NCBI GenBank assembly: GCA_963790915.1
Contig: CAWBQS010000003.1
Coordinates: 1,451,711 to 1,515,710, forward strand
Length of the DNA stretch: 64,000 bases
Source: an uncultured Chloroflexia bacterium
GTDB taxonomy: Bacteria > Chloroflexota > Limnocylindria > Limnocylindrales > CSP1-4
Direction of reading: 5' to 3'
The position numbers and the translations under genes were made by a program. Under the pieces are notes generated by a model that was not told the DNA's origin, searched no databases, and saw nothing but the letters and a program-made list of their open reading frames with translations. How positions within the stretch are numbered: the stretch's first letter is position 1; every line of letters begins with the position of its first letter. Positions 4,736 through 53,438 of the stretch are shown here, one piece after another.

Positions 4736-4911
4736 TACAGACTCCCCCGACGAACCCGCCGATCCATACCTGCCAGATCACCTGCTAGTGGGAGGTGTCG
4801 CCTGACGATAGGTCGAACGGATGGGAACCACGATGATCAGGGTCTCCAGCCAGGAGACTTCGCGCGTGGAAGATGCTCTCAGAGCATCAAGGTAGGAGGG
4901 AACACGAACCG

Positions 4912-5958
4912 ATGTTCAATCGCAAGCACACGGTCGCCCTGGCGGTCGCTGGCGCGCTGCTGATCGCGGCGCCCATCGGTGCGCTGGCCCAGGATGCGGC
5001 GTCCGACACCAAGGTCGCCAGCGTCGCCGGCGGCCCGCACCCGTTCTTCGATCCGTGGGGACCCGGGACCGAGGCAGCCGTGGCGGACTTCGGCTCTGGC
5101 CGGCGGCACCTACGAGTTCCCGCCGGCCTGGGAGCTGACGGCTCAGAACGACCTCGTCGAGACCCTTGTGGCCCAGGGCTACAACGCCTTCACCATCTTC
5201 CCCGGTGACGCCAACGCCACCAACACCCTCATGGACGAGCTGAAGGCAGCACGGCATCCCCAGCGTCTCCGCTGGTGGCTGCACCACGCGAGCCGTCCCC
5301 GGCAGCGTTCTGCCTCGCGACCGACGTGGGCAACTCGGCCTACATCGGCACCACAGACCTCATCGAGGCCATGGGCGACATCTGCACGGTCGAAGATCCC
5401 TGCCAGATCGTGCACATCGCCAGCCGACTCGTCGACCCCAACACCGAGGCCCGCATCGCTGCTGTCGACAAGCGCGTCGCGGAGTCCAACGGGACCGTCG
5501 AGGTCTTCCAGCACCTCACCGACTCCGATGACCAGGAAGCCGCGACCGAGAAGGTCGGTGGCATCCTGGCCGCCAACGGACCCGATATCGACGGCATGAT
5601 CAGCGTCGCCTACGTCGGCTCGTCCGTCGCCGCGACCCTGCTCAAGAACATCGGTGACGGCCGCATCAAGTTCGTCGGCATCGACGACGACCAGGCTGTC
5701 CTCGATGGCATCCGCGACGGCTACGTCGTGGGCACGATGTCCCAGAACCCCTACGGCCAGGCCTACATCGGCGCGTGGGTGCTGGACAAGATCCGCCACG
5801 GCTGCACGGTCAAGGAGGGCGCTCCCTGGTTCCTCGACACCGGGACCTTCCTCATCGACCAGTCGAACCTCGACACCTACCAGGACCAGCGCGTCCAGAT
5901 CACCAATGACATCCTCTCGACGTTCGAGGAGCAGTACCTCGACTGCCCCGCCGCCTAG
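4912..5958 (+). CDS. Sugar ABC transporter substrate-binding protein 2 (frameshifted)
   Basis: Signal peptide MFNRKHTVALAVAG..., GPHPFF, FVGIDDD and GTMSQNPYGQ across ORFs 4873, 4979 and 5275. SD ggagg upstream. Confidence 0.8.
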
Positions 5959-35292: not shown

Positions 35293-36141
35293 TCAGGCAG
35301 CAGCGGCGTCGGCGTCCGGGCAGTCCTGGCGGTACTCGCACCAGTGGCAGCGCCACGGCTCCGGCCGGGGCTCGAAGCGGCGCTCACGCGCCTGGGCCGC
35401 CATCGCCACGAGGTCCTGCTCGAAGCGCGCGAGGTCCGCGTCTGTCCGCGTGGTCGTGACCTCCAGCCCCTCGTCCGCGAAGTACAGGCTGAGGCGCGAT
35501 GCCGGCGGCAGGGCGGCACCAGAGTCCGGATCGCGCAGAGCGCCACGGGCCGCAGCGTAGGCATAGGCCGTCAGCTGCCGGTCTGCGTCCACCTCGGACT
35601 GCGAGCGGGTCCGCCCGGTCTTGTAGTCGCAGATGACCGTGGAGCCATCCGGCGCCCGGTCCACGCGATCGACGTAGCCGACGAAGCGGATCGTGCCGCG
35701 CCCGTCCGGGAGCGGTACGTCCACGCCGAAGCCGAGCTCCGCCGCGACGGGCGTCGTCTCCCGCTGCGCCTCCCGATCGAGGAAGCGCTGCAGGACCGGG
35801 CCGGCGGCGACCCGCAGGCGGGCGTGCTCGTCGGCGTCCAGCCCGGCGCCCGAGAGGACCTCCTCGCAGGCGGCCAGGAGCGTCCCCAGGGTGGGTCCCT
35901 CCGTGCCACCGGCGCCAACGCGCAGCCGCTCGCGGAGATACGTCTCCAGCGCGCGGTGGATGGCTGAGCCGAAGGCGAAGCGACCGGGCGGCACGTGCCC
36001 CGGCAGGTGCTCCACGTAGCGGTAGGCGTAGCTCCGCGGGCAGCGTTCGTACATCGTGAGTGACGAGTAGCTCTCCGAGTCACGGAGCGGAGCGCGGCCC
36101 GCCTGTTCCGTGTCCGGGCGATCCAGGACTGTCTGGGGCAT
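35293..36141 (-). CDS. PD-(D/E)XK nuclease, RecB/AddB/Cas4-like, with Fe-S cysteines
   Basis: SYSSLTMYERCP, GSAIH, E-LGF, GYVDRVD, CDYKTG, QLTAY and CHWCEYRQDC. Confidence 0.85.
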   Translation of the reverse strand: MPQTVLDRPDTEQAGRAPLRDSESYSSLTMYERCPRSYAYRYVEHLPGHVPPGRFAFGSAIHRALETYLRERLRVGAGGTEGPTLGTLLAACEEVLSGAGLDADEHARLRVAAGPVLQRFLDREAQRETTPVAAELGFGVDVPLPDGRGTIRFVGYVDRVDRAPDGSTVICDYKTGRTRSQSEVDADRQLTAYAYAAARGALRDPDSGAALPPASRLSLYFADEGLEVTTTRTDADLARFEQDLVAMAAQARERRFEPRPEPWRCHWCEYRQDCPDADAAAA

Positions 36142-36176
36142 CGATGACCTCCTGCACCGGAAGCATCGCGACGCCC

Positions 36177-36196
36177 TGTGCCAGCTTGGTTGGCAC
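36177..36196. promoter_or_regulatory. Palindrome TGTGCCA-gcttggt-TGGCAC (site 1 of 3)
   Basis: Intergenic, 36 bp from the nuclease start codon. The same motif occurs at 42529 and 51639. Confidence 0.6.
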
Positions 36197-36244
36197 GGCC
36201 CGGGATCGACGGATCACGGCCGTCGTTGTGCTACATTGTGCGTC

Positions 36245-36550
36245 ATGAGTCAGCGCGGTGCCCCCTTGTCGCGGGTCGGGGTGCGGGAGCTGCGCCAGAA
36301 CCTGTCCGTCTACCTCGATCGGGTGAAGGCTGGTGAGACGCTGGAGGTGACCGAGCATGGACACCCGGTGGCCCGACTCGGCCCCCGACCCGCGGAGCCC
36401 ATGACGCCGATCGAGCGGCTCATCGCGGAGGGTCGGGCGACCCCGGCGACTGGAGACCTGTCTGAGCTCGGGCCGCCGCCGAAGCTCCCTGAAGGCACCC
36501 CGAGCCTGACCGAGATCCTCCTCCGGATGCGCGAAGAGGAGCGTTGGTGA
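36245..36550 (+). CDS. Phd/YefM-type antitoxin (copy 2)
   Basis: VGVRELRQNLS...LEVTEHGHPVARL. An extended -10 TGCTACATT lies 7 nt before the ATG. Confidence 0.88.
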   Translation: MSQRGAPLSRVGVRELRQNLSVYLDRVKAGETLEVTEHGHPVARLGPRPAEPMTPIERLIAEGRATPATGDLSELGPPPKLPEGTPSLTEILLRMREEERW

Positions 36551-36996
36551 CCGAGCGGTCCGCGATCTACTTGGACGCGTCCGCCATCGTGAAGCTCATC
36601 GTCGACGAGCCGGGCTCCGCGGACCTCATCGAGTACCTCGCGACCAGGCCGGTGCGCGTCACGAGCCGCATCGCCGACGTGGAGGTGCGCCGGGCGGTCG
36701 GACGACTCGGCGAGGTCATCGACCATGACCGTCTCGCCCGAGTGCTTGCGGCACTGACGATGGCGGAGCTGGACGATCCGCTGGCCCTCGCCGCCGGGCG
36801 CCTCACGCCTCCGGTCCTCCGGACGCTCGACGCCATCCACCTGGCGACGGCGCTGGAGCTCATCTCCGACCTGGAGGCCTTCGTGACGTACGACCGACGC
36901 CTGGCCGAGGCGGCCACCGAGGCCGGGATCGTGGTCGTCTCGCCAGGATCCCGCACCACGAGCGGAGTCGATAGCGAGCCAACGCCGGCCGTGTAG
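36547..36996 (+). CDS. vapC: VapC PIN-domain toxin (copy 2)
   Basis: YLDASA, DVEV, TLDAIHLATA and VTYDRRL. Confidence 0.9.
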   Translation: MTERSAIYLDASAIVKLIVDEPGSADLIEYLATRPVRVTSRIADVEVRRAVGRLGEVIDHDRLARVLAALTMAELDDPLALAAGRLTPPVLRTLDAIHLATALELISDLEAFVTYDRRLAEAATEAGIVVVSPGSRTTSGVDSEPTPAV

Positions 36997-37052
36997 GTCC
37001 TCCGCCGGGCCGTTGAGCCGGCAGATGGCGCCGATGCGTCCGCCGCCTGTGC

Positions 37053-37496
37053 TCAGGTGGTCCCTGGCCGCTTGAGCGGATCGACCCAGCGCAAGCCGGG
37101 GAAGCGGCCGAAGTCCGTGTCGTTGGAGTACAGGTCGGCGCCCTGCTCGATGGCGTACGCCGCCAGCTGGATGTCCGTGGTCAGGTTCGCCCCGGTCCCC
37201 ATCGTCTCGAGGAGGCCGAAGGCGATCTCGAGGTACCGCGGCCCGGGGACGATGAACCTGGTGTTGGGCTGGGCCAGCCACTCCCGTACGCGGCCGACGG
37301 CATCGCCCACCGACATCGCCGACTCCAGCACGCGGCCGCTGGTGGCGATACGGAGGTATCCGAACAGGGCTGGAGAGGTCAGGCCCACGAGGTCCGACCC
37401 GTTGAGGAGGTCCTCCAGCCAGGCACGCGACCGTTCGTGCTGCGGGAACCCGCTGATGGTGGCGTAGAGCAGCAGGTTGACGTCCGGGATGATCAC
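37053..37496 (-). CDS. vapC: VapC PIN-domain toxin (mycobacterial-like subfamily)
   Basis: IPDVNLLLYA, FLRIAT-like GYLRIATS, DIQLAAYA and YSNDTDFGRFPGL. Confidence 0.9.
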   Translation of the reverse strand: MIIPDVNLLLYATISGFPQHERSRAWLEDLLNGSDLVGLTSPALFGYLRIATSGRVLESAMSVGDAVGRVREWLAQPNTRFIVPGPRYLEIAFGLLETMGTGANLTTDIQLAAYAIEQGADLYSNDTDFGRFPGLRWVDPLKRPGTT

Positions 37497-37750
37497 CCGG
37501 AGCGACGCGCGTCCGCCAGCAGGGCGTCGTCCTCGAGCTCGTCGGCAAGCTGGTTGAGCCTGGCGAGGTCGATCCCCGGGCGGACGGCCGATCGGTGGGC
37601 CACCAGTCGCACGCGTTCGCGCCTGGACGGCGGAGCGAGCGCTTGCCGGAGCGCCTCGTTCACCACCTGCTTCATGGGCCGCCGCTCCCGATGGACCGCT
37701 TCATCGATCAGGCGTGCGACATCGGCGTCGAGCGTCAGGGTGGTGCGCAT
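37493..37750 (-). CDS. VapB-like RHH/CopG antitoxin
   Basis: MRTTLTLDADV...MKQVVNEALRQAL. GTGA overlap with the toxin. Confidence 0.85.
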   Translation of the reverse strand: MRTTLTLDADVARLIDEAVHRERRPMKQVVNEALRQALAPPSRRERVRLVAHRSAVRPGIDLARLNQLADELEDDALLADARRSG

Positions 37751-37754
37751 GGCA

Positions 37755-37766
37755 GCATCATGATGC
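37755..37766. promoter_or_regulatory. Perfect 12-bp palindrome GCATCATGATGC, putative antitoxin operator
   Basis: 4 bp upstream of the antitoxin ATG. No SD is present. Confidence 0.6.
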
Positions 37767-37873
37767 GCGTTACTGGTGACGTCAAGATGTCATGCGAGTG
37801 AATGACATCGGCCGGATCGCCTGGGCCGGCTCACGTCGCGGAACCGCGGGGCCCCCCGACGCGTCGACGACGC

Positions 37874-39150
37874 ATGAACGCGAAGCTCGCCGCCCTGGTC
37901 CCGCTCGTCCTCCTGCTGGCCACCAGCGCATCACCGGCCCTCGCCCAGGGCGACGTGGGGGTGGCGCAGGCGGATGTCCCTCGGGCCTCGACGTCCCCTG
38001 CGGACGCCACGGAGGCCGGAGCAGCCCTCGATGCCTTCGGCCTCGACCTCTATCGAGCGCTCTCGCCGGGCCAGACGAACATGGTCTTCTCGCCGACGAG
38101 CATCAGCCTCGCCCTGGCCATGGCGAGGGCCGGCGCCCGGGGTCAGACCGCCGCCGAGATGGACGCCGTCATGCACGCGCTCGCCTCGGACGAGCACGCG
38201 GGCTGGCTGAACGCGCTCGACCAGGCACTCGCATCGCGAAGCGGCACGTCCACCGACGACAGTGGCCAGGCGCTGCCTGTGACGCTGCGGATCGCCAACG
38301 CCCCGTTCGCCCAGCAGGGGATGCCCCTGGAGGCCGCCTACCTCGAGACCCTCGCTGCGCGCTACGGCGCCGGGCTCCGCCTGGTGGACTACATGCTCGG
38401 CGACCGAGGCGGCGCGCCAGACCATCAACGCCTGGGTGGACGAGCGCACCGAGCAGCGCATCCCGGAGCTGCTCGTCGAGGGCGTGCTCACGCCGGCGAC
38501 CCGGCTCGCCCTCGTCAACGCCATCTACCTCAAGGCTCCATGGCAGACGCCATTCGAGCCCGAGGCGACGCAGGAAGGGGTCTTCACGCGGGCCGACGGC
38601 TCGACGGTGGAGGTGCCGTTCATGACCACGACGGCGTCGCTGCCGTATGCCTCGGGAGACGGCTGGCAGGCGCTCGAGATCCCCTACGTGGGCGGCTCGC
38701 TCGCGCTGACCCTCATCCTCCCGGACGACCTGGCCGACTTCGAGCGGGCGCTCACCCCGGACGGACTCGCGGCCATCACCTCGTCGCTGAGCGACACGCA
38801 GGTGGCGCTGGAGATGCCCAGGTTCGGGATCGAGTCGAAGACGGAGCTGGCGACCATCCTCGCCGCGCTCGGCATGCCCACGGCCTTCGGCGATGGGGCC
38901 GACTTCAGCGGCATCACCACGGCCGAGCAGCTGGCCATCTCCAACGTCATCCACCAGGCCAACATCGATGTCGACGAGAAGGGCACGGAGGCGGCGGCTG
39001 CGACCGTGGTCGTGATGGAGCGAGTCCGCGATGCCCAGCGAGCCGCTGTCCGTCCGGGTGGACCGACCCTTCCTGTTCGCGCTCCGGGATGTCCCGACGG
39101 GCGCCATGCTCTTCCTCGGTCGCGTCGGCGACCCGTCGATCGAGCGCTGA
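37874..39150 (+). CDS. Secreted serpin (frameshifts near 38400 and 39030)
   Basis: Signal peptide, NMVFSPTSI, NAIYLKAPW, hinge EKGTEAAAAT, and VDRPFLF...LFLGRV. Confidence 0.88.
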
Positions 39151-39178
39151 TCGGGAGAACAGAACGGGGGAGAAGACG

Positions 39179-39880
39179 ATGACGACCGAACGACCCGACC
39201 TCGCCGCAGCCAGCGCGCTCCCCGCCGCGAGGTCACAGCCACGCGTCCAGGTGGCGATGGACGTGACTTCGCTCGACGAGGCGACCCGTCTGGCCACCGC
39301 GGCGCTGGACGCTGGGGCCGATCAGCTCGAGATCGGCAAGCCGCTCATCGAGTTCCTGGGCCTGCAGGGCGCCGCCTCGATCATCGCTCGCTTCCCGGGC
39401 GTCCGCTTCGAGCTCGACCTGATGATCATGGCGGCCGCGGCCGGCTTCGTCGAAGCAGCGGCCGACATGGGAGCGCACGGCGTGACCGTCACGGCACTCG
39501 TCCCCTGGGTCACCATCGAGGACGCGGTCAGACGCGGCCAGGAGCTCGGCGTCCGGGTCTGCGTCGACCTCTTCAACGTCAGCGATCCCGTCGCCACGGC
39601 ACACAGGGCGGAGCGCACGGGGGCCGGGGCCGTGATGGTGCATGTCGGCGTCGACCAACGTCGCCATGATCCGCACTACTCCCAGCTGAACGAGCTGCGA
39701 CAGGTCGCCGGCTCCCTCTCGATCCCGGTGGCCTACGCGACATACGACGTGGACGAGGCCGTGGCGGCTGTCGCTGCGGGCGCCTCGGAGATCGTCCAGG
39801 GCACGCCACTGATCGAAGCCGACGATCCACGAGCTGCCCTGGCGGCGTTCATCGCCCGGGTCAAGGGTCGGGACGCCTGA
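39179..39880 (+). CDS. OMP decarboxylase/HUMPS (hexulose-6-phosphate synthase-like) family protein with degenerate motif
   Basis: VQVAMD, LEIGKPL, DLMIMA in place of DxKxxD, and VHVGVDQ. Confidence 0.7.
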   Translation: MTTERPDLAAASALPAARSQPRVQVAMDVTSLDEATRLATAALDAGADQLEIGKPLIEFLGLQGAASIIARFPGVRFELDLMIMAAAAGFVEAAADMGAHGVTVTALVPWVTIEDAVRRGQELGVRVCVDLFNVSDPVATAHRAERTGAGAVMVHVGVDQRRHDPHYSQLNELRQVAGSLSIPVAYATYDVDEAVAAVAAGASEIVQGTPLIEADDPRAALAAFIARVKGRDA

Positions 39881-39968
39881 CCGCTGACCCTGCAGCCGCA
39901 GCCATCCGACCCGCGGCAGGCGAGAACGACGCCTGCTGGCCGCCCGGCCCGCTATCCTGCGCGCCACC

Positions 39969-40517
39969 ATGGACTCGACCTACGTGGCCCTGCTGCGCGG
40001 CATCAATGTCGGCGGCAAGAACCGCATCCTGATGGCTGACCTGGTGGCCTGTTTCGAGTCCGCCGGGTATGAGGACGTGCGGACCTTCATCCAGAGCGGC
40101 AACGTCGTGTTCCGGGCGGACCAGGGTGAGCGCGCCCAGCTCACTGACGCGATCGAGCGGGTGCTCGCCGATGCGTTCGACTACCGCGCGACCATCGCGC
40201 TCAGGGACCACGAGGAGATGCGCGCGGTCGTCGACGCGGCGCCGCCCGGGTTCGGCGCGGAACCGGACCACTACCGCTATGACGTGCTCTTCCTGATACC
40301 CCCACTGACGCCCGACGAGGTGCTCGGCGCACTGACGATGAAGGACGGTGTCGACGCGGCCTGGGCTGGACCGGGCGTGGTCTATCACTCGCGACTGATG
40401 GCGCGTGCCTCCGAGAGCCGGATGTCACGGCTCGTGTCGCACCCCGCGTACCAGCGCATCACCATCCGGAACTGGAATACGACGACGAGGCTGTACTCGA
40501 TGATGGCCCGCGAGTAA
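39969..40517 (+). CDS. DUF1697 family protein
   Basis: YVALLRGINVGGKN, TFIQSGNV and TIRNWNT. Confidence 0.88.
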   Translation: MDSTYVALLRGINVGGKNRILMADLVACFESAGYEDVRTFIQSGNVVFRADQGERAQLTDAIERVLADAFDYRATIALRDHEEMRAVVDAAPPGFGAEPDHYRYDVLFLIPPLTPDEVLGALTMKDGVDAAWAGPGVVYHSRLMARASESRMSRLVSHPAYQRITIRNWNTTTRLYSMMARE

Positions 40518-40678
40518 CCGGACCGCGCGCTTTCCGAGCTCGGACGGGCGGGGCTGGGCCCGTGCCACGAGCGGCACCATGCCGGGCAACGCCTGGCGGA
40601 ACGTCAGTTGGCGGATGCCTCCGCGATCCGTCGATGCGGCCTACCGCCAACAACGCGGAGTGGCTCGACGGCGTGGTA

Positions 40679-41152
40679 TCAACGGTGAGGGAGGCGCCAG
40701 TGCGAAAGCAGCGGCGGGAGGTCTGACAGCCCGGGATCTCGAGGTGGTGGCGAACCGCCATCGTCGCCGTCCCAGCTGCGAAGGTATTGGTCGGGGATGT
40801 CGCCCCAGCCGAAGAACGGCATCGGCCTGTGCGGAACGATGCCGAAGGCCTCGATCGGGTCCACGCGCTTCGGGCCCACCGTGCACAGGTGAGCCCAGTA
40901 GTCGCCGAGGTCGAACACGTACGCGAACTGCTCATCGAGCTGGAGCCGGCTCAGCCGCTCGCGCTGATCGTCGATGGCGGGACCGAGCTCCTCCCAGTCC
41001 ATGTACGGTGTCGTCAGTCGCGACCCGTCGGCGAGGGTGAACTCATGGCGATGTGCCCGGTCCCAGCGCGCGAAGGCGTCGTCGATGGCGTCCGCCAGCT
41101 GCGCGAAGGTGTGGTTCCGAGCTGCCGCGAACAGGCGTCCTGGGCGCGGCAA
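40679..41152 (-). CDS. pRiA4b ORF3-like protein (N-terminus probably extends to ~41200 and is frameshifted)
   Basis: PRPGRLFAA, FAQLADAIDDAF, HRHEF, FAYVFDLGDYW-H and WGDIPDQY. Confidence 0.6.
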   Translation of the reverse strand: MPRPGRLFAAARNHTFAQLADAIDDAFARWDRAHRHEFTLADGSRLTTPYMDWEELGPAIDDQRERLSRLQLDEQFAYVFDLGDYWAHLCTVGPKRVDPIEAFGIVPHRPMPFFGWGDIPDQYLRSWDGDDGGSPPPRDPGLSDLPPLLSHWRLPHR

Positions 41153-41201
41153 CAGGCTCCCCAGCGACTAGGGCTCCACCCGGATGCGACAGCGAGTCAC
41201 G

Positions 41202-42492
<1,291 letters not shown>

Positions 42493-42528
42493 GTTGGGTC
42501 TGCGGCGGGCAGCGGATCCAGGCGCCCT

Positions 42529-42548
42529 TGTGCCAGACAGGTGGCACA
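42529..42548. promoter_or_regulatory. Palindrome TGTGCCA-gacagg-TGGCACA (site 2 of 3)
   Basis: Intergenic, about 160 bp upstream of the SNF2 start and about 37 bp after the end of the degraded copy. Confidence 0.55.
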
Positions 42549-42710
42549 CCGCCGGCGGAAGATATCCGCGCGCGAGAGGGACGTCGCCAGCAGTCGAGCA
42601 GCGGCCCGAACGTCTATCGAGAGCGCCTGAGAGACCCGGCTCCCTGACGGCGCGGCAACCGGCCCCGAGCGGGCACGGTGCCCCAGCCGGGTGCGATAGC
42701 GAGGTTCACG

Positions 42711-44417
<1,707 letters not shown>

Positions 44418-44608
44418 CGGGGACATCGTCGGGTCGCTCAGCACCCTCTGCGACATGCGCAACCAGTGGTCGCTGGCGCCTACCATCGGATCGACACTCA
44501 GAACGGGGGAAGTCCTATGAACGCGTCTTCTACGTGGTACGACCCGGCGATCGGTGAGATGCCCGGGCGCCGCGAGGCGGCCGAGGCGGCAGCGTGAGCT
44601 GGTATGGC

Positions 44609-44622
44609 ACTATGGCCATAGT
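44609..44622. promoter_or_regulatory. Perfect 14-bp palindrome ACTATGGCCATAGT abutting the antitoxin ATG
   Basis: Directly precedes the ATG at 44623. gtatggca repeats occur at 44602 and 44621. Confidence 0.6.
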
Positions 44623-44910
44623 ATGGCAACCATCAAGATGACGTTCAGCCTGGACGAGGCGACGGCGGCTCGGCTGGAGGAGTCGGCCGCGTCCCTGCGC
44701 AAGCCCAAGAGCGAGGTCGTGCGGGAGGCCATCCGCGACTACGCCGAACGTGTCGGCCGCTTGACGGAGGCGGAGCGACGCCGGCTCCTCGGCGTCTTCG
44801 ATGAGCTCGTGCCGGCCATCCCGGCGCGGCCCGTGGACGAGGTCGATGCGGAGCTCTCCGAGCTCCGGCAGGCGCGCCGCCAGGGCGGAAGAGGGCGGGC
44901 ACCGGCGTGA
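44623..44910 (+). CDS. CopG/RHH antitoxin (VapB-like)
   Basis: MATIKMTFSLDE...KPKSEVVREAIRDY. Overlaps the toxin start. Confidence 0.82.
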   Translation: MATIKMTFSLDEATAARLEESAASLRKPKSEVVREAIRDYAERVGRLTEAERRRLLGVFDELVPAIPARPVDEVDAELSELRQARRQGGRGRAPA

Positions 44911-45287
44911 TCGTCGTCGATACGTCGGCGCTCATCGACAGTCTCGCCGGCCCGAGGCGTTCGGCGCCCCGGATGCGCGCCCTCATCGAGGCTGGCGAGC
45001 GTCTCGCGCTCCCGACCCTCGTCCTCTACGAGTGGTGGCGCGGGCCGCGGCGTCACGAGGAGCTCGCGGCCCAGGAAGCCCTCTTCCCGGCGGAGGCGGC
45101 GCTGCCCTTCGGCGTGGAGCAGGCAGACATCGCGGCGCGCCTCTACGGGTCGGTGAGTCGGCCCCGGGGTCGAGAGGTGGACCTGGCCATCGCCGCCCAC
45201 GCCATCAGCAGGGACGCCCGCCTCTGGACCCTGAACCCTGGCGACTTCGAGGACATCCCAGGCCTCGTCACCGTCGTGCTCGCCTGA
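44907..45287 (+). CDS. vapC: VapC PIN-domain toxin
   Basis: VVDTSALID, VLYEW, DLAIAAHA and LWTLNPGDF. Confidence 0.9.
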   Translation: MIVVDTSALIDSLAGPRRSAPRMRALIEAGERLALPTLVLYEWWRGPRRHEELAAQEALFPAEAALPFGVEQADIAARLYGSVSRPRGREVDLAIAAHAISRDARLWTLNPGDFEDIPGLVTVVLA

Positions 45288-45335
45288 TCGCGGTGGCGAT
45301 CCAACCTCGGGCGCTGCCTGGCCGCGCCGATCGCC

Positions 45336-45351
45336 GTGCGATCGATCGCAC
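45336..45351. repeat. Perfect 16-bp palindrome GTGCGATCGATCGCAC between convergent genes
   Basis: Self-reverse-complementary. Lies between the 3' ends of vapC and the HNH gene. Confidence 0.7.
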
Positions 45352-45424
45352 CGGTCACGCTGCCGACGGACCGGTCACGGTCCATGGCGTCTCGGGCGAC
45401 GTCGTGCCCCGGCCGTCACGACCT

Positions 45425-46348
45425 TCATCCCCGGAACAGAGCGTCGCCGTGCCACTCGAGGAACTCGCGGGCTGGGGGCGGGTCGGGTGACCTCGGCAGT
45501 CGGATGCGAGACCGGTCCAGGGCGTAGTAGTCGTGGCCGTTCTCGATCTCGTCGCGGATGCTTCGGCTGACGCGCAGCTCGTAGTCTGGCGTCACCGTGA
45601 CATAGCCTCGGTCGAAGAGCGTGTGCAGGTCCTCGCGCAGCAACAGACCGTTCTCCAGCGCGTGTGGGCCGGACTCGCTGTACGGCCTGATGTGCGCGGC
45701 TTGGAGCACGGGCAGCGTGCGTTCGTTCGTGACGGCGCAGCGCCGCTGGTAGGCATCGAGGACTCGCGCGCGGAAGGCACCCTGGCCAAGACGCGGCGCG
45801 ACGAGGGTCGGGTTGCCGTATCGGTCGGCCTCGGGGACTTCATCGTGGAGTGACGCGAAGGGCTGGGCGGCCCGGCGTGCCAGCTCGACGCGCTCCCAAA
45901 GGCTGGCGCCCACGAGCGTGCTCGTGTCGTAGGTCTTGCCCACCTGGACAGACCGGTGCCAGTCGAGGGGTGGAGCGACCCACAGGTCCGGCGGCAGGAA
46001 GAAGGGGGCAGCGAGCGCCACGCAGCCGATGGAGTCGGCGTGGACGTCGAAGGCGGGTCGGTACCGCCGATTCGCTGCGCCATGTCCTTGAACGTTGCGG
46101 AGCCGTTCGTGGTCCCGAAGACGTCCCAGGCGAGCCGTGCCGGCAGTAGCGTGAAGTAGGACCATGATTCGCCGCCCACCGATCCAGCCACCGTCCCGAG
46201 CGTGGAGCTTGAAGAGGAATGGGGCTCCTAGCGTGAGATTGACCGGCTTGCGTGCTCCCGGCTGCCAGAAGTCGACCTCGTCTAGCGGCCCCTGCGCGGA
46301 CAGAAAGCCGTACCAGTCGCGGTCCGTGAGGCCGACCCAGAACCTCAT
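45425..46348 (-). CDS. HNH endonuclease with N-terminal TDxxW...FWQP domain (internal frameshifts)
   Basis: GLTDRDW, EVDFWQP, RLGQGAFR, CAVT, AAHIRP and NGLLLREDLHTLFDRG. Confidence 0.85.
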   Translation of the reverse strand: MRFWVGLTDRDWYGFLSAQGPLDEVDFWQPGARKPVNLTLGAPFLFKLHARDGGWIGGRRIMVLLHATAGTARLGRLRDHERLRNVQGHGAANRRYRPAFDVHADSIGCVALAAPFFLPPDLWVAPPLDWHRSVQVGKTYDTSTLVGASLWERVELARRAAQPFASLHDEVPEADRYGNPTLVAPRLGQGAFRARVLDAYQRRCAVTNERTLPVLQAAHIRPYSESGPHALENGLLLREDLHTLFDRGYVTVTPDYELRVSRSIRDEIENGHDYYALDRSRIRLPRSPDPPPAREFLEWHGDALFRG

Positions 46349-46377
46349 GTCGGACAGTGTATGGGGAGCGACGGCCT

Positions 46378-46704
46378 TCAGCGGCTGATTCGCATCCTGA
46401 TGAACTGGGAGAGCTCGTCGCCACGGCTCCCGGGATCGTCGAGAGGACGGCACCGATGAAGGCGCTGCGATAGCCGACACTTGGGACCGATATCTCGAGC
46501 TCACCGTCACGCCAAAGGCGGTCGAGCGCCTCCTGCACCCACGCGACGGGCACGCGCTGCCCGCTCGGCGACTTCGTCGTGCCCACCACGACGTCTTCGC
46601 CTGCCATGCTCAACACCCAATTGGGCCGGCCGGTGATCGTGTTGGATCTCCTGGCCGATGAGGCCTTGAAGGATCGACCGGGCATCACGGTAGTCCACGT
46701 CCAT
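46378..46704 (-). CDS. Small hypothetical protein (~105 aa, frameshifted)
   Basis: MDVDYRDARSILQGLIGQEIQ joins TITGRPNWVL...GYRSAFIGAVLSTIPGA across ORFs 46507 and 45840. Confidence 0.5.
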
Positions 46705-46814
46705 CACTGGCCGCTCGATGACCCATTCGACGGCGGCGTTCTCCACGGGCCGACGAGCTTCGCAGCCGCCGGTGCGGGCACCGGCTCTTCGGGCTGCGGG
46801 CCGGGTTTCGTCGT

Positions 46815-49800
46815 TCACGCCACCACCTCCAGCACCCGGATCGTCTCCTCCTTGTCCGCCTGGAGCGGCGTCGTCGGGTGGCAGGTGAAGTAGATGACCT
46901 GGCAGGTCTGGGCGAGCGCCTCGATGGAGCGGCAGCCCGGGCGGCGCGGTCGTCGTCGAAGTTGACGAGGATGTCGTCCATGACGATGGGCAGCGGCTCC
47001 CCGGACGTCTCCACGAAGTGCTCGACGAGCCCGAAGCGCAGCGCCAGGTAGAGCTGCTCGGACGTGCCGCGTGACAGGGCCGGGATCCCGACCTGCCTGC
47101 CGTCGGCGCGCTCCGCACCCTCGATGGGCTTGCCGAGCGGCGCGATGATCCGCGGGTAGCGGCCACCGGTCCACTCGGTGAAGTGGCGCTCCGCCGCGGT
47201 CACGACGGCCGGTCGGTGCGCCTCCTCGTAGACGTGTCGGGAGCGCCACAGAAGATGGCGCGCGAGCGCCAGGACGGTCCAGCGCTCGGCGGCGGCCTCG
47301 ACCTGGGCCTGCGTGTCCGCCCGGCGCTGGCGCAGCTCGGTGGCCGCGGCATCCGCCTCCATCTCCTCGCGGCTCTTGCGCAGCGCGCCGGCCTCCTGGT
47401 TCAGGGCGTCCCGCGTCGACGCCAGGTCGGCGAGCTGCTGGTCCAGGGTCTCCACCTCACCCTGCACGTCGGCGATGTCGGCCACCGCGTCCAGGTCCGC
47501 CTGGAATGCCGTGAGCGCCTCGTCCGGCCCGGAGAGCGCCGCCAGGGTCGTCGTCAGGGCCGTCGCCTGCCCTTCCAGCGCGAGCGCCCTGGTGCTCCGG
47601 TCCACCTCGGCACGGAGCCCCTCCGGGTCGCCCACCCCCAGCTCCACCAGGAACGCGTCCAGGCCGCCCGTCGCTGCCGCACGTGCCTCCTCCGCCAGCG
47701 TGAGCACCTCCGCCCGCTCGGCCTGCGTGCGCACGAGCGCGTCCCTGGCGCGATCGCCCTCGACCGCGCTGGCGAGGCGTTCGGCCAGGAGGACCGCCGC
47801 CCCATCCGGATCCGCTTCGGCGGCGACGCCCGCGGGCAGGAGGTCGGCGAGGTCGGCCACCCTGGCCTCGAAGGACTCACGCTCCACGCGCTGTGCGTCG
47901 TGGCGGGTCTCCAGCGTGCGCATGGCCATGACCGTCGCCTTGGCAGCCGTCACGGCATCGACGACCCGGGCGGCGGTCTCGCGATCGTCCGAGGTGTCCA
48001 GGTCGTGAGCGCCGAGCCACTCCTGCCAGGTGGTGCGGGCAGCAGCGGCCTCCGCCTCGCGCTCGCCGACGGCCGTCACCAGCTGCCCCTGCGGGTCTCG
48101 ACCGTCGCCAGCGTGGCCCGCAGTCCCGACGCCTGCTCCTGCAGACCCGTCAGCCGGTTGGCCCTCGCACGGTCGGCCTCGATGGCCTCGCCGAAGGCCT
48201 CCAGGTCGCTCGAGCTCGGTGCGGCCGGCAGGCCCACGCCCTGCGCGACGGTCGCGACCTCGGCGGTCAGTCGCTCGACCTCCTGCGTGGCCGCGATCGC
48301 CCGGTCACGTCGGGCCTCCTCGCCCTCCAGGACGCGCCGCTCGTCGTCCAGCGTGGCGAGCAGGCGGTCGACGTCCGTCCGCCGTGGGCTCACTGCCGAG
48401 GTCGAGGGCCGGCCCGAGGCGGGCGATGCTCGCGTCGGCCGCCGCCAGCTGCTCCTCGAGCTGGCCGCGGACGCGCTCGACGTCCGCGACGCCGGTGGGA
48501 CGCCGCAGGTAGGCCAGTACCCCGGCGAGGGCGAGAGCACCGACCGCGATGACGATGACCGCGACCGGGGACGCGTTCGCCAGGAGCAGGGCCACGGCGA
48601 CGACGAGCCCGCCGATGGCGATGGCGGCCGGGAGCAGGTATGGCTCCCACGGTCGCGCGGCGGTCGCCTCGACCGTGGCCGAGGCACTGGTGAGGAGCCC
48701 GGAGGTGGTGCTCCGCGTCTCGAGGGCAGCCGCCAGGTCGCGCGCGTCGCGGGTGCGCTGCTCGAGCCTGGTGCGCTCGGCGGCCAGGTCTGCCTCGGGT
48801 GTGTCGGCGGCGATGCGTCGCTGCTCGTCGAGCCGGTCCGCGAGACCCCGGACCTGCTGGAGGGCGCGCTCGCGGGTGGGGTAGGGGAGGCGGGCGGCGA
48901 GCTCCGTCTCCAGCGTCGACATGCGGGCAGCCGCGTCGTCGACCTGCCCGGTCAGCTCGGTGATGCGGTCCTCGGCGGCCTTGAGCTCCCGGCGGGCGGT
49001 CAATTCGGCTTCCGCGGCGCGGTCCAGCATCGTGCGCAGGCGGCCTGCCATGTCCGAGTGGACGCTGACCAAATCGTCGAAGGCCTCGACGCGCTCGACG
49101 GTCCAACCGGACCCCAGCCTGGCCATCGCCGTGTCCACCTGGGTCCGGGCCTGCGCCAGCTCCAGCTCCGTGCGGGTCCGCTCGTCCTGGCGCGCGGTCT
49201 CCGCCCCGGCGGCCTCCACGAGATCCTGCAGCTCCTGCCGGCGAGCGAGGGCCGCCTCGTCCAGGACGGCGGCATCGACCTTCAGCGCGGCCTGGTCCCG
49301 GGCGGCTTCCGCGTTGCGCGCGGTCTCGTCGGCCGCGGTCAGCGCCGTCTCGAGTCGTGAGAGGCGCTCCAGCGTGTCCGCCGGGAAGGCCCTGGTCTCG
49401 CCGATGGCCTCCCGGTCGGCGCGGGCGGCGCGAAGCTCCAGCCAGGCCGGCCAGCCATCGATGACGCGCTGGCGGGCGCGTCGGTGGGCGGAGGCGTCCG
49501 CGTAGGTCGCGCCCAGCTCCTCGAGCCGTCGCTCGACCTCGGCGAGCCGTGCGCCAGCCGCGGCATACTCGGCTGGCAGGTCGCGGTCCTTCAGCTGCGC
49601 GTCGAGCTCCTCCAGCTCGCGAAGCAGCGTGTTGATGCGCGGGAGCTGACCGCCCGGCTTGAAGAGGGCCTCCATCTCGCCCGCGAGGCCGCCCTCCACG
49701 TCCAACCCGGAGACGCTGCCGGTGCCCAGGCCGGCGCCGTAGATGCGGGCCGCCACCTCCGCGTCCGTGAGGCTCCGGAACTGGGTCAGCTCCTCCAGGC

Positions 49801-50174
49801 CGAAGGCGAAGATGTTGCGGTAGACGCCGCTCTCCACGCCCTGCAGCAGGGTGGCGAGGGCTCCCTCGCCGAGCTCCTGGTGGTGCTCATCCTGGATGGA
49901 CAGCTTGCCGCCGCCGCCCTTGTCGCCGTAGCGCTCGATGCGGAAGGGGCGACCGTCCGCCATCTCCACGTTCAGCCAGCCACCGCGCCGGCCGCCGTTG
50001 AGGGCCGGGTAGCGGTCGCGCTCGAAGCCGAAGAGCATGGCGCGGATGAAGGCCAGGAAGGTGGTCTTGCCGGCCTCGTTGGGCCCTTTGATTATGGTCA
50101 GGCCCGGGCGCCGGCGCCAGGTGCGCCCCGTGGAACTGGCCGAAGCCATCGACGTTGATGTCGACGAGGCGCAT
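46815..50174 (-). CDS. YhaN-like AAA ATPase with long coiled coil (SMC/SbcC-like; several frameshifts)
   Basis: N-terminal GPNEAGKTT and YRNIFAFGLEEL, coiled coil, C-terminal LSRGTSEQLYLALR and PIVMDDILVNFD. Confidence 0.85.
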
Positions 50175-50177
50175 CGC

Positions 50178-51499
50178 TCAGCCCTCGTCCCCGAGGCGGT
50201 CCACGAGGATCGCCTCCGCCTCGTCCAGGAAGCGCCGCGATCCGTGCGGCGTCCGGTCGGGTGGCCGCGAGCACGCGGCGGGCTCGCTGGTTGCCGAAGA
50301 GGTCGTCGATGGCCTTCTCCAGGTCGGACAGGGCCGGGACGCCCTCGACCGTGGCGGCGGGCGCCTCCGTGCCCTCGGCGGTCTGTCGGAGCTGACCCCG
50401 CGCGGCGTCGAGTCGGCGGAGCAGGTCGCCCACGAAGTCCTCGGCCTGCCGACGTGCCTCGACGTCCACGGCCGGGCGGGTCCGGTCCCGCAGGCCCTCG
50501 ATCCAGGCGAACGGCTCGGCCGTGCCCAGGCGCTCCTGGGCTGCCGTGGCGACATCCGCGCGCAGGCCGGGCCTGGCGAGCGACGTGTGCATCGGTCCCC
50601 GGCCGGTGAGCGTGACCCGGCCGACGATGGAGCGCTCGGCGGCGCTGCGGGCCCCGTCCACGGCGGCGGTCACCGCGTCCACGAGCGCCTCTTCCGTCTC
50701 GAGCTCCTCGATGGGCACGTCGATGAGCTGCCAGCGCACGACGTCCACCGGGCGGAACTCCGGGTGGGCGTGGCCGCCGTCATCGACGCGCACGAGGTAG
50801 CAGCCGCGCGGGTCGGTCTCCTCCGGGTCCCGGCCCTGCGGGTTGCCGCAGTAGACGGCCGTGGGCTGCTTCTTCGAGAGGACCGCGTGCTTGTGGATGT
50901 GGCCGAGGGCCCAGTAGTCCATGCCGGAGGCCTTCAGGTCGGAGACGCTGCAGGGGGCGTAGTTGGCGGCGCCTTCCAGCCCGCCGACGTTGGCGTGCAG
51001 CAGGCCGATGGCGTATGGCGCGTCCGCCTCACGCCGGAAGCCGCTTGGCGAGGTTGGTGGTGATGTCCCGCTGGTGGTAGCTCACGCCGTAGACGCGGGC
51101 GATCTCCGTGCCATCGCGCACGACCGGCCGGGCGGTCACCTCGTGGGCCGGGAAGCGGTGCGCCAGCGCCGGCCAGGCGACCGATGGCTCCCAGCCGTCC
51201 AGGGGATCGTGGTTGCCGGTCACGACGAAGGAGGCGATGCCGGCCTCCGCCAGGCGGGCCAGGCCATCCCGGAAGACGAGCTGGCCGCGGAGCGTCCGGT
51301 TGGCGCGCTCGAAGGCGTCCCCGGCCACGAGCAGGAAGTCCACCTGCTCCCGCGAGGGCCAGGTCCACGATGTTGCGCCAGGCCAGGATCGTGGACTCGC
51401 GCAGGAGCGCGGCCACGTTGGGCGGCGCCTCGGCCGGTCAGGCCGACGAAGGGGCTGTCGAGGTGCAGGTCGCCGGTGTGGACGAAGGAGAAGGCCATG
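50178..51499 (-). CDS. YhaO-like Mre11/SbcD metallophosphoesterase DNA nuclease (frameshifted)
   Basis: FVHTGDLHLDSPF, AGDAF, TGNHD, DYWALGHIH and GNPQGR...E...RG. Confidence 0.87.
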
Positions 51500-51638
51500 T
51501 CGTCAGCGGGACCGCGCGACGAGCTTGCGGCGGGCGCGGGCAGCCGGGCGCCCACGTGGCGCGGCTGTCCCCCCGTGTCCGACTGTCATGGCCCCCTCGA
51601 TGGGCGTGCAGGCCGTTTCCGGGACCATACGCGTTTCC

Positions 51639-51659
51639 TGTGCCAGCTCACGTGGCACA
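51639..51659. promoter_or_regulatory. Palindrome TGTGCCA-gctcacg-TGGCACA (site 3 of 3)
   Basis: Intergenic, 140 bp upstream of the YhaO-like start and divergent from hipBA. Confidence 0.6.
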
Positions 51660-51825: not shown

Positions 51826-51877
51826 ATGTCTCATAACATTGACACAACGTCGGCGTTGCGTCTAACCTATGAGACAT
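51826..51877 (+). promoter_or_regulatory. hipBA promoter with a 10-bp inverted-repeat operator pair
   Basis: ATGTCTCATA (51826-51835) and TATGAGACAT (51868-51877) bracket TTGACA-N18-TAACCT. The ATG lies 7 nt after the -10. Confidence 0.7.
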
Positions 51878-52181
51878 GAAGAAGTCGAAGCCGCTCTACC
51901 CACGGCAGCAGCGCGCGGCTTCAGAACTGGGCGCGCGGGTTCGACTTGCCCGAGAGCGCCGACGTATGCCCGCAGCGGAGATGGCGGAGCGCGCCGACAC
52001 CTCTCGGATGACGATCTACCGCCTGGAGCACGGCGACACGAGCGTCAGCCTCGGCGTGCTCGTGCGGGTGCTTGGCGTTCTCGGGCTGGTCGACGACCTC
52101 GGTGCAGTCGCCCGGGACGACGTCCTCGGCCGCCAGCTTCAGGACGCCGCCCTGCCGCGTCCCTCGCGGTCGTTGCGCTGA
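51876..52181 (+). CDS. hipB: HipB-like XRE helix-turn-helix antitoxin
   Basis: LGARVRLARERR...MAERADTSRMTIYRLEHG...VSLG. TGATG overlap with hipA. Confidence 0.75.
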   Translation: MKKSKPLYPRQQRAASELGARVRLARERRRMPAAEMAERADTSRMTIYRLEHGDTSVSLGVLVRVLGVLGLVDDLGAVARDDVLGRQLQDAALPRPSRSLR

Positions 52182-53438
52182 TGCCGAGGCTGGACGCTGC
52201 CGCCGTCTTCCTCGACGCACGCGACCTCGGTCCGTGCCGCGCAGTCGGCACACTCCGGCCCGCCGGTCGTGCGCCCGACAGCCCGATCGGCTTCGTCTAC
52301 GCCGCGGAATGGTGGTCCGAGCCCGCCGCCTTCCGGCTCGACCCGAGCCACTACGAACAGACCGTTCAGCCGCAGTATCCGGAGCCGGGTCACCAACTCG
52401 CGCCCGTGTTCACCGACGCCTCGCCTGACCGATGGGGGCGGATCCTGCTCGACTACCGGGAGCAGGACCGGGCAAGGGCAGAGGGCCGACGGCCCCGGCC
52501 GCTCGGCGAGTGGGACTATCTGCTCGGCGTCAACGATGAGCTTCGCATGGGCGCGCTGCGCTTTGCCGCGCCCGCGGCAGGTTCTCCGTTCCTCGACGAC
52601 GGTCCGGGTTCCGTCCCGCCGCTCGCGGACCTTCGGGAGCTGGAGCACGCAGCTCGGATCGTCGACGACCCACGTCATGATGATCCGTCCGCCATCCGGG
52701 ACGCACTGCGGCAGCTTCTCGCCCCCGGCAGCCCGATGGGTGGCGCCCGTCCCAAGTCGAACTTCCTTGATGCGGCAGGCGCGCTGTGGTTTGCGAAGTT
52801 CCCGTCGCACAACGACCGCAGAGACATGGGTGGCTGGGAGTACGTTCTGAATCGCCTCGCTGCACACGCGGGGATCGACGTCCCGGAGGCCGACCTTCGG
52901 ATGTTGTCCGGCCCGTACAACACGTTCCTCGCGCGTCGCTTTGACCGAGAGGGGAACGGCCGACGCCTGTTCGCGTCGGCCATGACGATGCTCGGCAAGC
53001 GGGACCGTGAGCCATCTTCCGTACGCCGAGATCGCCGAGGCCATCGACCTGAACGGGGCACCCGGTCACATCGAAGAGGATCTCGCCCAGCTGTTCCGCC
53101 GGCTCGTGTTCAACATCGTGACCGGTCATCGCGATGACCATCTGCGCAATCACGGGTTCCTGCGGGCCCCTGCCGGATGGCGTCTCGCTCCCGCCTATGA
53201 CCTCAACCCGATGCCTGAGATGTCGCAACACGAGGTTGCTGTCGGGCTTGCGGCCAGGGATCCCGATGTCGAGGTTGCCGTCAGTGAGACCGCGCCGTTC
53301 TGCCGGCTGACCCCGGCCGCGGCGCGCGACATCGTGAACGAGGTCCGTTCCGCGGTTGCAGAGTGGCGATCGGTCGCGCGCGAGGTGGGCCTGTCACGCA
53401 CGGAGATCGAGGCGGTGTCGCCGGCATTCGACGAGTGA
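52181..53438 (+). CDS. hipA: HipA-like Ser/Thr kinase toxin (frameshift near 53020)
   Basis: DASPDRWGR, GGARPK, AKFP, RRFDR, DDHLRNHGFL and LAPAYDLNP. Confidence 0.88.

Follow-up and report, generated by a model that had tools for sequence, protein, structure and literature searches.

Transcription activators with a WYL domain are the closest described counterparts of the element considered here. PafBC acts at promoters with the consensus tGTCgg(N10)tA(N3)T, in which the hexamer occupies positions -28 to -23 and no -35 element is present, and the two guanines of the GTC triplet are read by PafB through R46 and R50 (PMC8635444). Promoters dependent on DriD, such as TGTCGC-N10-CAATCT and TGGCGC-N10-CAAGGT, carry a pseudo-palindromic site that overlaps the missing -35 element at a fixed distance from the -10 (PMC13004042), and SiwR uses a 19-bp imperfect palindrome located just upstream of the -10 (PMC10693628). 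The present analysis concerns a palindrome, GTGCCA-N6/7-TGGCAC, that occurs three times in a 64,000-nucleotide stretch of Chloroflexota DNA (hereafter the window; C3:1451711-1515710 on one of the five contigs of a 3.32-Mb genome of 71% G+C that is 85% complete). An original prediction, made from the letters of the window, had placed the three copies beside three DNA-processing loci and had read them either as operators for a regulator of DNA damage or defence whose gene lies elsewhere or as core sites of a tyrosine recombinase. The data assembled below indicate that the palindrome is probably the upstream half of a DNA-damage promoter of the WYL-activator type that controls recA, nucleases and helicases.

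Exact matches to GTGCCA-N5..8-TGGCAC were confirmed at the three places first reported (window positions 36178-36196, 42530-42547 and 51640-51658) and nowhere else in the window, and none arose across 100 dinucleotide-preserving shuffles of the window (0 expected); relaxation of the pattern to TGCCA-N4..9-TGGCA recovered only the same three copies. Across the 3.32-Mb genome 11 exact copies were found, eight with a 7-nt spacer (N7) and three with a 6-nt spacer (N6), versus approximately 0.7 expected from the frequencies of the two half-sites (approximately 0.34 copies per spacing), and neither everted nor direct arrangements of the half-sites produced a comparable peak genome-wide. Ten of these copies were intergenic according to codon-bias gene calls; the remaining copy was judged from orthologous loci to occupy a gap of approximately 60 bp between two divergent leaderless genes, and all 11 are therefore counted as intergenic. 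Genome-wide, the bare palindrome with one or two mismatches showed no excess over controls; a composite scan to which AG[CG], the N10 gap and a -10 box had been added gave 16 hits, versus 2 when the -10 was displaced as a control. The difference between 6- and 7-nt spacers, originally ascribed to a possible sequencing indel, proved to be genuine, the N6 form GTGCCA[CT]ACAG[GC]TGGCAC being conserved in at least 7 related genomes. A search of the literature on the letters of the motif returned unrelated papers only.

It was apparent from the arrangement of these sites that the motif is both oriented and asymmetric, with the form GTGCCA-N3/4-AG[CG]-TGGCAC-N10-NANNNT: in this genome AG[CG] always stands before the gene-proximal half-site, which exactly 10 nt separate from a -10-like hexamer (TATGGT, TACCAT, TATGCT, GATGCT, CAGCCT and similar). 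When 85 unique exact sites were collected from this genome, 18 others in its genus and 12 members of a sister family with 1.1-Mb genomes, NANNNT was present at exactly N10 in 56 of the 61 orientations with AG before [CG]TGGCAC, versus 10 of the 109 other orientations, and the position-frequency consensus was cGTGCCA-YNNR-AGS-TGGCAC-R-N9-[CGT]ANNNT. No -35 box was conserved, the spacer positions at which one would be expected carrying 0-0.5 bit and only the AG[CG] triplet being retained there. Many start codons lie 22-23 nt past TGGCAC, equivalent to 6-7 nt past the -10, and leaderless mRNAs are therefore indicated. Since the element is oriented, has its -10 at N10 and is closely followed by start codons, it is a complete, if unusual, promoter rather than an isolated operator, and relative to the predicted start its proximal TGGCAC hexamer would lie at about -28 to -23 and its distal hexamer at about -41 to -36. 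One palindrome (C2:73455-73473, with orthologues at L007 and L008) lies in a gap of approximately 60 bp between divergent genes for a 430-residue protein with a D..ECK motif and an alpha/beta hydrolase, and has a -10 box on both sides, at N10 on one and at N7-N9 on the other, so that both promoters may be served by one site.

The character of the set follows from the genes that the oriented sites precede. recA follows such a site in seven same-genus genomes and in at least four of the sister family, where the site is of the N6 class and the -10 is TACACT, and the recA gene of the genome under study (contig C2, minus strand) is preceded by GTGCCAGTCAAGCTGACAC-N10-GAGACT, which departs from the exact motif at one position. 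Also downstream of oriented sites are a UvrD-type helicase, two families of RecB-like/RNase_H_2 nucleases, YhaO, SNF2 and, in six genomes, the conserved 430-residue protein, together with a MerR regulator, a NosD-like beta-helix protein, an ARPP-1 protein, DNA methyltransferases and small zinc-ribbon proteins. The composite scan added a UvrD-like gene preceded by GTGACA-GGCT-AGC-TGTCAC-N10-CAGCAT-N7-ATG and a gene for an RNase-H-like exonuclease, and the regulon in this genome is predicted to comprise about 14 promoters. Sites precede recA, UvrD-like, RecB-like and yhaO genes across the order, and the position upstream of orthologues is kept in about 30 genomes.

A feature of the recA locus itself may be recorded here. 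A conserved, very basic open reading frame (ORF) of 52-53 residues (MAGKVPSRRE.KKP.KSKK...) is situated between the promoter and recA (C2 approximately 347,560-347,900; L126-L135), and the order tgt-small ORF-recA holds in family f1 and in sister family f3; the small ORF was not evident in the one genome of sister family f2 that was inspected (G019). The leader that precedes it contains three direct repeats with an 11-nt period, reading GTGAAG/GTGCAG/GTGAAG in this family and GGTAAG three times in the sister family.

In a scan of 150 genomes from the phylum, the exact motif was confined to its own order, apart from unrelated hairpin repeats. In other genera of this family, and in a sister family belonging to the same class, the exact motif is lacking and its place is taken by G[CT]GACA-N6/7-TGTC[AG]C, in 2-13 copies per genome versus 0-1 for a control pattern. 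These variant sites keep the inner AG[CG], show the N10 register of the -10 in 10 of 15 sites examined, and include one before the gene for the 430-residue protein (GCGACA-CCGA-AGG-TGTCAC-N10-CAAGGT-N6-ATG); no site was found at the recA promoters of the sister genera and family f3, where the variant motif stands at other genes. In all of the variants the G and C of TG-N-C are invariant, while the middle base is G, T or A, a pattern that fits the read-out by PafB of the two guanines of GTC. Copies in two genomes of another family (G131 and G054; L106-L118 and L123-L125) were rejected as an unrelated repeat with no -10 box at N10: there GTGCCAGC-GAA/TTC-GCTGGCAC, present 22 and 7 times respectively, is the constant apex of long perfect hairpins, the 12-18-bp outer stems of which vary between copies.

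The earlier statement that the palindrome is not a LexA box was borne out, LexA having its own CGAACAAGTGTTCG box. The lexA promoter reads TTGACA-a-TCGAACAAGTGTTCGG-TACCCT, with the TCGAACAAGTGTTCGG box before the gene (C3:653901), lexA was found in 26 of 30 relatives (27 of 31 genomes with this one included), and the GTGCCA motif is absent upstream of lexA; because LexA is accounted for by its own canonical box, the GTGCCA motif is not its site. The two elements are alike in being palindromes before DNA-repair genes; the LexA SOS box (CGAAC-N4-GTTCG) differs in having another sequence and a separate set of genomic positions, before lexA and other genes, and in being a repressor operator with no fixed register to a -10. 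Further boxes of the LexA type were noted at C3:651377 and C3:651415, and one canonical example, CGAACCGATGTTCA, falls in an intergenic part of the window at approximately 4906-4917 (C3:1456616).

A search for a candidate regulator identified one gene with a WYL domain in the whole genome, at C4:49674-50671 (WYL match at C4:50117-50332), on a different contig from the window and flanked by a membrane protein gene and pntAB. In relatives the same neighbourhood contains an intact orthologue of 330 residues with HTH_11, WYL and WCX domains, the best matches of which among solved structures were DriD (over its full length, E 4e-8) and PafBC. All twelve of the 1.1-Mb genomes and, overall, 30 of 31 relatives carry the gene, as do all 18 genomes of a second test (16 members of the class and two of another family, f13). 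Its recognition helix has an invariant R-T-x-Y-R, with which DriD aligns by the same R-x3-R pattern, and contains K or R in lineages with TGGCAC, and T, P or V in most lineages with TGTC, genus g6 being an exception. On these sequence grounds, the WYL protein is the likely binder of the motif.

The proposed mechanism can be stated as follows. DNA damage would give rise to single-stranded DNA (ssDNA), which would activate a homodimer of the sole winged helix-turn-helix (wHTH)-WYL-WCX factor, a protein of the PafBC/DriD/SiwR type; both winged-helix domains would then bind the two half-sites, and the dimer would bring RNA polymerase, equipped with the housekeeping sigma factor, to promoters that the polymerase could not use alone, the activator site standing in for the -35 in conjunction with a housekeeping-type -10 at N10. 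We infer from the comparisons above the identity of the binder, its activating role and ssDNA as its signal. The result would be a LexA-independent damage regulon, the window members of which are the nuclease gene, the SNF2-SWIM gene (additionally gated by a riboswitch for S-adenosylmethionine, SAM) and the YhaO/YhaN operon, with recA, the UvrD-like helicase, the RecB-like nucleases and others outside the window. Sites oriented before recA and repair genes, with the WYL gene on another contig, support the first of the two original readings, that of a damage or defence regulator encoded elsewhere.

The neighbours originally named for the three copies in the window, a Cas4/AddB-like nuclease, an SNF2-SWIM helicase, and a YhaO/YhaN operon with hipBA at its side, were all confirmed by Pfam and tblastn. 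Predicted activator site 1 (36178-36196, minus strand; GTGCCA-ACCA-AGC-TGGCAC) is an exact match, oriented by the AGC and -10 rule with its proximal half towards the nuclease gene; its predicted -10 box GATGCT (36162-36167, minus strand) begins exactly 10 nt after TGGCAC, and is followed by an AGGAGG ribosome-binding site and an ATG at 36141. The intact target gene (35293-36141, minus strand) codes for a 282-residue PD-(D/E)XK nuclease (Cas4/AddB-like; Pfam PF12705, E 2.2e-41), and in relative L030 an orthologous site, GTGCCA-CGCG-ACC-TGTCAC-N10-GATGCT, precedes a 74%-identical nuclease gene. Predicted site 3 (51640-51658, minus strand; GTGCCA-CGTG-AGC-TGGCAC) is likewise an exact, oriented match, with a predicted -10 box TATGGT (51624-51629, minus strand) exactly 10 nt after TGGCAC. 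Its first target, a YhaO/SbcD-like metallophosphoesterase gene (50193-51498, minus strand), was delineated by tblastn with the intact orthologue at L078, which is itself preceded by an N6 site at a distance of 68 nt; the assembled yhaO is broken into at least four frames, and the Pfam Metallophos match is weak (E 0.0011; 19.9 bits, below the 21.5-bit cutoff). The downstream gene of the yhaO operon (48305-50149, minus strand) codes for a YhaN/SbcC-like AAA_27 ATPase (Pfam AAA_27, E 1e-17, plus AAA_23), and the gene for HipA lies on the other side of site 3 (51869-53137, plus strand).

Predicted site 2 (42530-42547, plus strand; GTGCCA-GAC-AGG-TGGCAC) is an exact match of the N6 class, which is kept in relatives, the downstream sequence being similar in L067, L068 and L070, and a predicted -10-like box GAAGAT (42558-42563, plus strand) lies 10 nt after TGGCAC. 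Between this promoter and its target gene is a SAM-I riboswitch aptamer (42611-42702, plus strand; Rfam RF00162, 47.3 bits versus a gathering score of 44.4, E 5e-10), the 3' P1 strand of which abuts a GAGG ribosome-binding site and the ATG at 42711. The target (42711-44417, plus strand) is a helicase of the SNF2 family with a C-terminal SWIM zinc finger (Pfam SNF2-rel_dom, E 9e-29, plus SWIM), the helicase C-domain region of which is out of frame in the assembly at approximately 43,900-44,250, where the translation is garbled. Combined SAM-I and promoter units also occur in relatives L068 (2073-2162) and L077 (1861-1958, 1444-1535, 512-613, minus strand), where they precede small ORFs with GHAHxxH...HEEH motifs and no Pfam match, one of the two relatives having three tandem copies of the promoter-riboswitch unit. 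Cargo of this kind is unusual for a SAM riboswitch.

Three further features of the window provide context. A second copy of a vapBC cassette (36222-37012, plus strand; identified by repeat search, with Pfam PhdYeFM and PIN) starts 26 bp from site 1, the distance first reported, and a diverged, frame-broken fragment of an SNF2 paralogue (41202-42280, plus strand; tblastn, 46-54% amino acid identity) lies immediately upstream of site 2. A single long ORF at 37802-39880 (plus strand), with Pfam matches to the N-terminal part of Serpin and to OMP decarboxylase, probably represents two genes fused by frame errors or a spurious read-through.

Alternative explanations were considered against these data. 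That a dimeric repressor, whether the same WYL protein behaving like BrxR or CapW or another helix-turn-helix protein, might cover the -35 region and be released by damage or phage appears unlikely, although a 19-bp inverted repeat does overlap the promoter, and some members of the regulon, such as the DNA methyltransferases and SNF2, are defence-like. Operators seldom keep a register to the -10 that is fixed to the nucleotide, as it is in the large majority of oriented sites; there is no -35 box for unaided polymerase to use; and PafBC and DriD, which are activators, have the same hexamer in the same place and at the same spacing. The fixed register and the missing -35 box favour an activator site over a classical repressor operator. 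It is improbable, too, that the sites serve a different factor, for instance an autoregulated MerR-family regulator, the gene for which follows one copy of the motif in this genome (C3:1015282) and another in L064. Autoregulation is common and the WYL gene has no site upstream, but MerR operators sit between -35 and -10 elements with 19-20-bp spacers, whereas the centre of the palindrome is near -32, and only 2 of the approximately 30 genomes show a MerR gene next to a site. Moreover, geometry and hexamer match those of WYL activators, even genomes of 1.1 Mb in which the recA site persists still encode the WYL protein, and the MerR gene is more simply regarded as a member of the regulon.

Readings in which the palindrome does not serve as an activator site of this kind fare less well. 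TGGCAC is the consensus of a sigma-54 -24 element, and the two arms could form a 6-bp stem with a 6-7-nt loop, but a sigma-54 promoter or a nucleic-acid hairpin (an RNA element or terminator) is very improbable: no rpoN/Sigma54_DBD (PF04552) match was found in the genome, at 85% completeness, and no TTGC is conserved 5 nt downstream, so that the original remark on the lack of a consistent sigma-54 -12 element holds. The half-sites, furthermore, are invariant rather than covarying, natural variants that combine GTGCCA with TGACAC or TGTCAC break the pairing, and the element is upstream of the predicted start of transcription. The second of the original readings, in which the copies would be tyrosine-recombinase core sites at the borders of mobile modules, is hardly credible. 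The inverted arms of 6-7 bp with a 6-7-bp spacer and the proximity of the copies to the duplicated vapBC, the SNF2 paralogue fragment and hipBA gave that reading its appeal, but the resemblance to a core site is superficial (no integrase search was made in the window): the duplicated vapBC cassette does not include the motif, which copy 1 also lacks, its orientation and its 10-nt distance from the -10 box are fixed, its half-sites may mismatch (GTGCCA...TGACAC, GTGACA...TGGCAC), and it is conserved across an order before core genes including recA, the gene for the 430-residue protein and the UvrD-like helicase. The nuclease, helicase and toxin-adjacent loci of the window are most likely co-regulated repair genes and not the edges of mobile modules.

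Several observations nevertheless weigh against a WYL-activated damage promoter. In the assembly one G that intact orthologues do not have (GAGATC-G-ATCGGC) splits the HTH part of the regulator (frame 2, ATG at 49674) from its WYL-WCX part, and the predicted regulon genes yhaO, SNF2, RecB-like C4:69363 and UvrD-like C2:266290 are also frame-broken. These breaks may reflect either indels introduced in assembly or a regulon that decayed once its regulator was lost. No motif was found upstream of the WYL gene or of the co-oriented membrane protein gene that precedes it, which leaves no autoregulatory link, and the covariation of helix and half-site is suggestive but imperfect. The conserved AG[CG] before the proximal hexamer has no counterpart in PafBC or DriD promoters, and the hexamers of DriD sites are 5 bp apart in the same register, as opposed to 7 or 6 here. 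WYL proteins that act as repressors of defence systems are also known (PMC13004042), BrxR and CapW among them. Lastly, we infer both the -10 assignments and the link between factor and motif for a lineage that is uncultured.

With these reservations, a WYL-activated promoter offers an explanation for the motif shared by nuclease, helicase and toxin-adjacent loci that otherwise look unrelated, and provides a testable map of a second, LexA-independent damage regulon in an uncultured but abundant lineage of soil and freshwater Chloroflexota. In the literature on PafBC in Chloroflexota no description of such a promoter was found, the mechanism being known from mycobacteria and Caulobacter.

Among the described systems, PafBC, of mycobacteria and other Actinobacteria, and its promoters (RecA-NDp) show several likenesses. 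TG[GT]C[AG]C resembles tGTCgg, occupies the same -28 to -23 position, and is followed by the same N10 gap and a tANNNT hexamer with no -35; recA belongs to the regulon and a canonical LexA system coexists; and the regulator is a wHTH-WYL-WCX protein with an R-x3-R pattern in its recognition helix. The mycobacterial PafBC regulon reportedly also holds Rv1277/1278-like YhaO/YhaN, the SNF2/SWIM pair helZ and nucleases. By contrast, the present genome has one WYL gene rather than an adjacent pafB-pafC pair, and does not encode the heterodimer; the PafBC site is non-palindromic, whereas here an inverted partner of the proximal half-site is found 6-7 bp further upstream and makes a two-armed palindrome, implying that both HTH domains bind; and the host phylum is Chloroflexota. 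Genes of the pup-proteasome system were not seen in approximately 12 kb around the regulator gene, no dedicated search having been made.

DriD of Caulobacter crescentus, which acts on didA, bapE and CCNA_03891, is similarly a homodimeric WYL activator with its site at the missing -35, and its published promoters contain a proximal half TG[GT]CGC-N10-(-10), but only this geometry is shared. The half-sites are ACGAC/GTCGT in DriD and GTGCCA/TGGCAC here, with no correspondence to the DriD site ATACGAC-N7-GTCGTAT, protein identity is low, and the named DriD targets (didA, bapE, dnaG, recJ and CCNA_03891/CCNA_01149) do not include recA (PMC13004042). SiwR of Mycobacterium smegmatis, as a homodimeric WYL activator that responds to genotoxic stress through a 19-bp imperfect palindrome upstream of the -10, is also alike; it differs in controlling only the adjacent dinB-like genes, whereas the regulator here is unlinked to its predicted promoters, which number 14 or more.

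The motif has in common with these activators the hexamer class TG-N-C-R-S, the N10 gap, the lack of a -35 and the 19-bp size. It would extend the hexamer-N10-(-10) geometry of PafBC and DriD to a third phylum, and would combine two known modes, a two-armed palindrome with its proximal half at the -26 position of PafBC, and so bears on the evolution of WYL activators and on the spread of promoters resembling those of "sigma adaptation". It is conceivable, if decidedly tentative, that the Chloroflexota system is an intermediate or ancestral link between activation of the DriD type, with both HTH domains on a palindrome, and of the PafBC type, with one hexamer at -26, to which integration of a SAM signal has been added. 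Were that so, expression of the SNF2-SWIM helicase, and of the small ORFs behind the riboswitch in relatives, would need DNA damage and low SAM together, and the WYL-dependent, LexA-independent damage response would be an ancient one, with a single promoter geometry common to PafBC, DriD and the Chloroflexota factor in at least three phyla.

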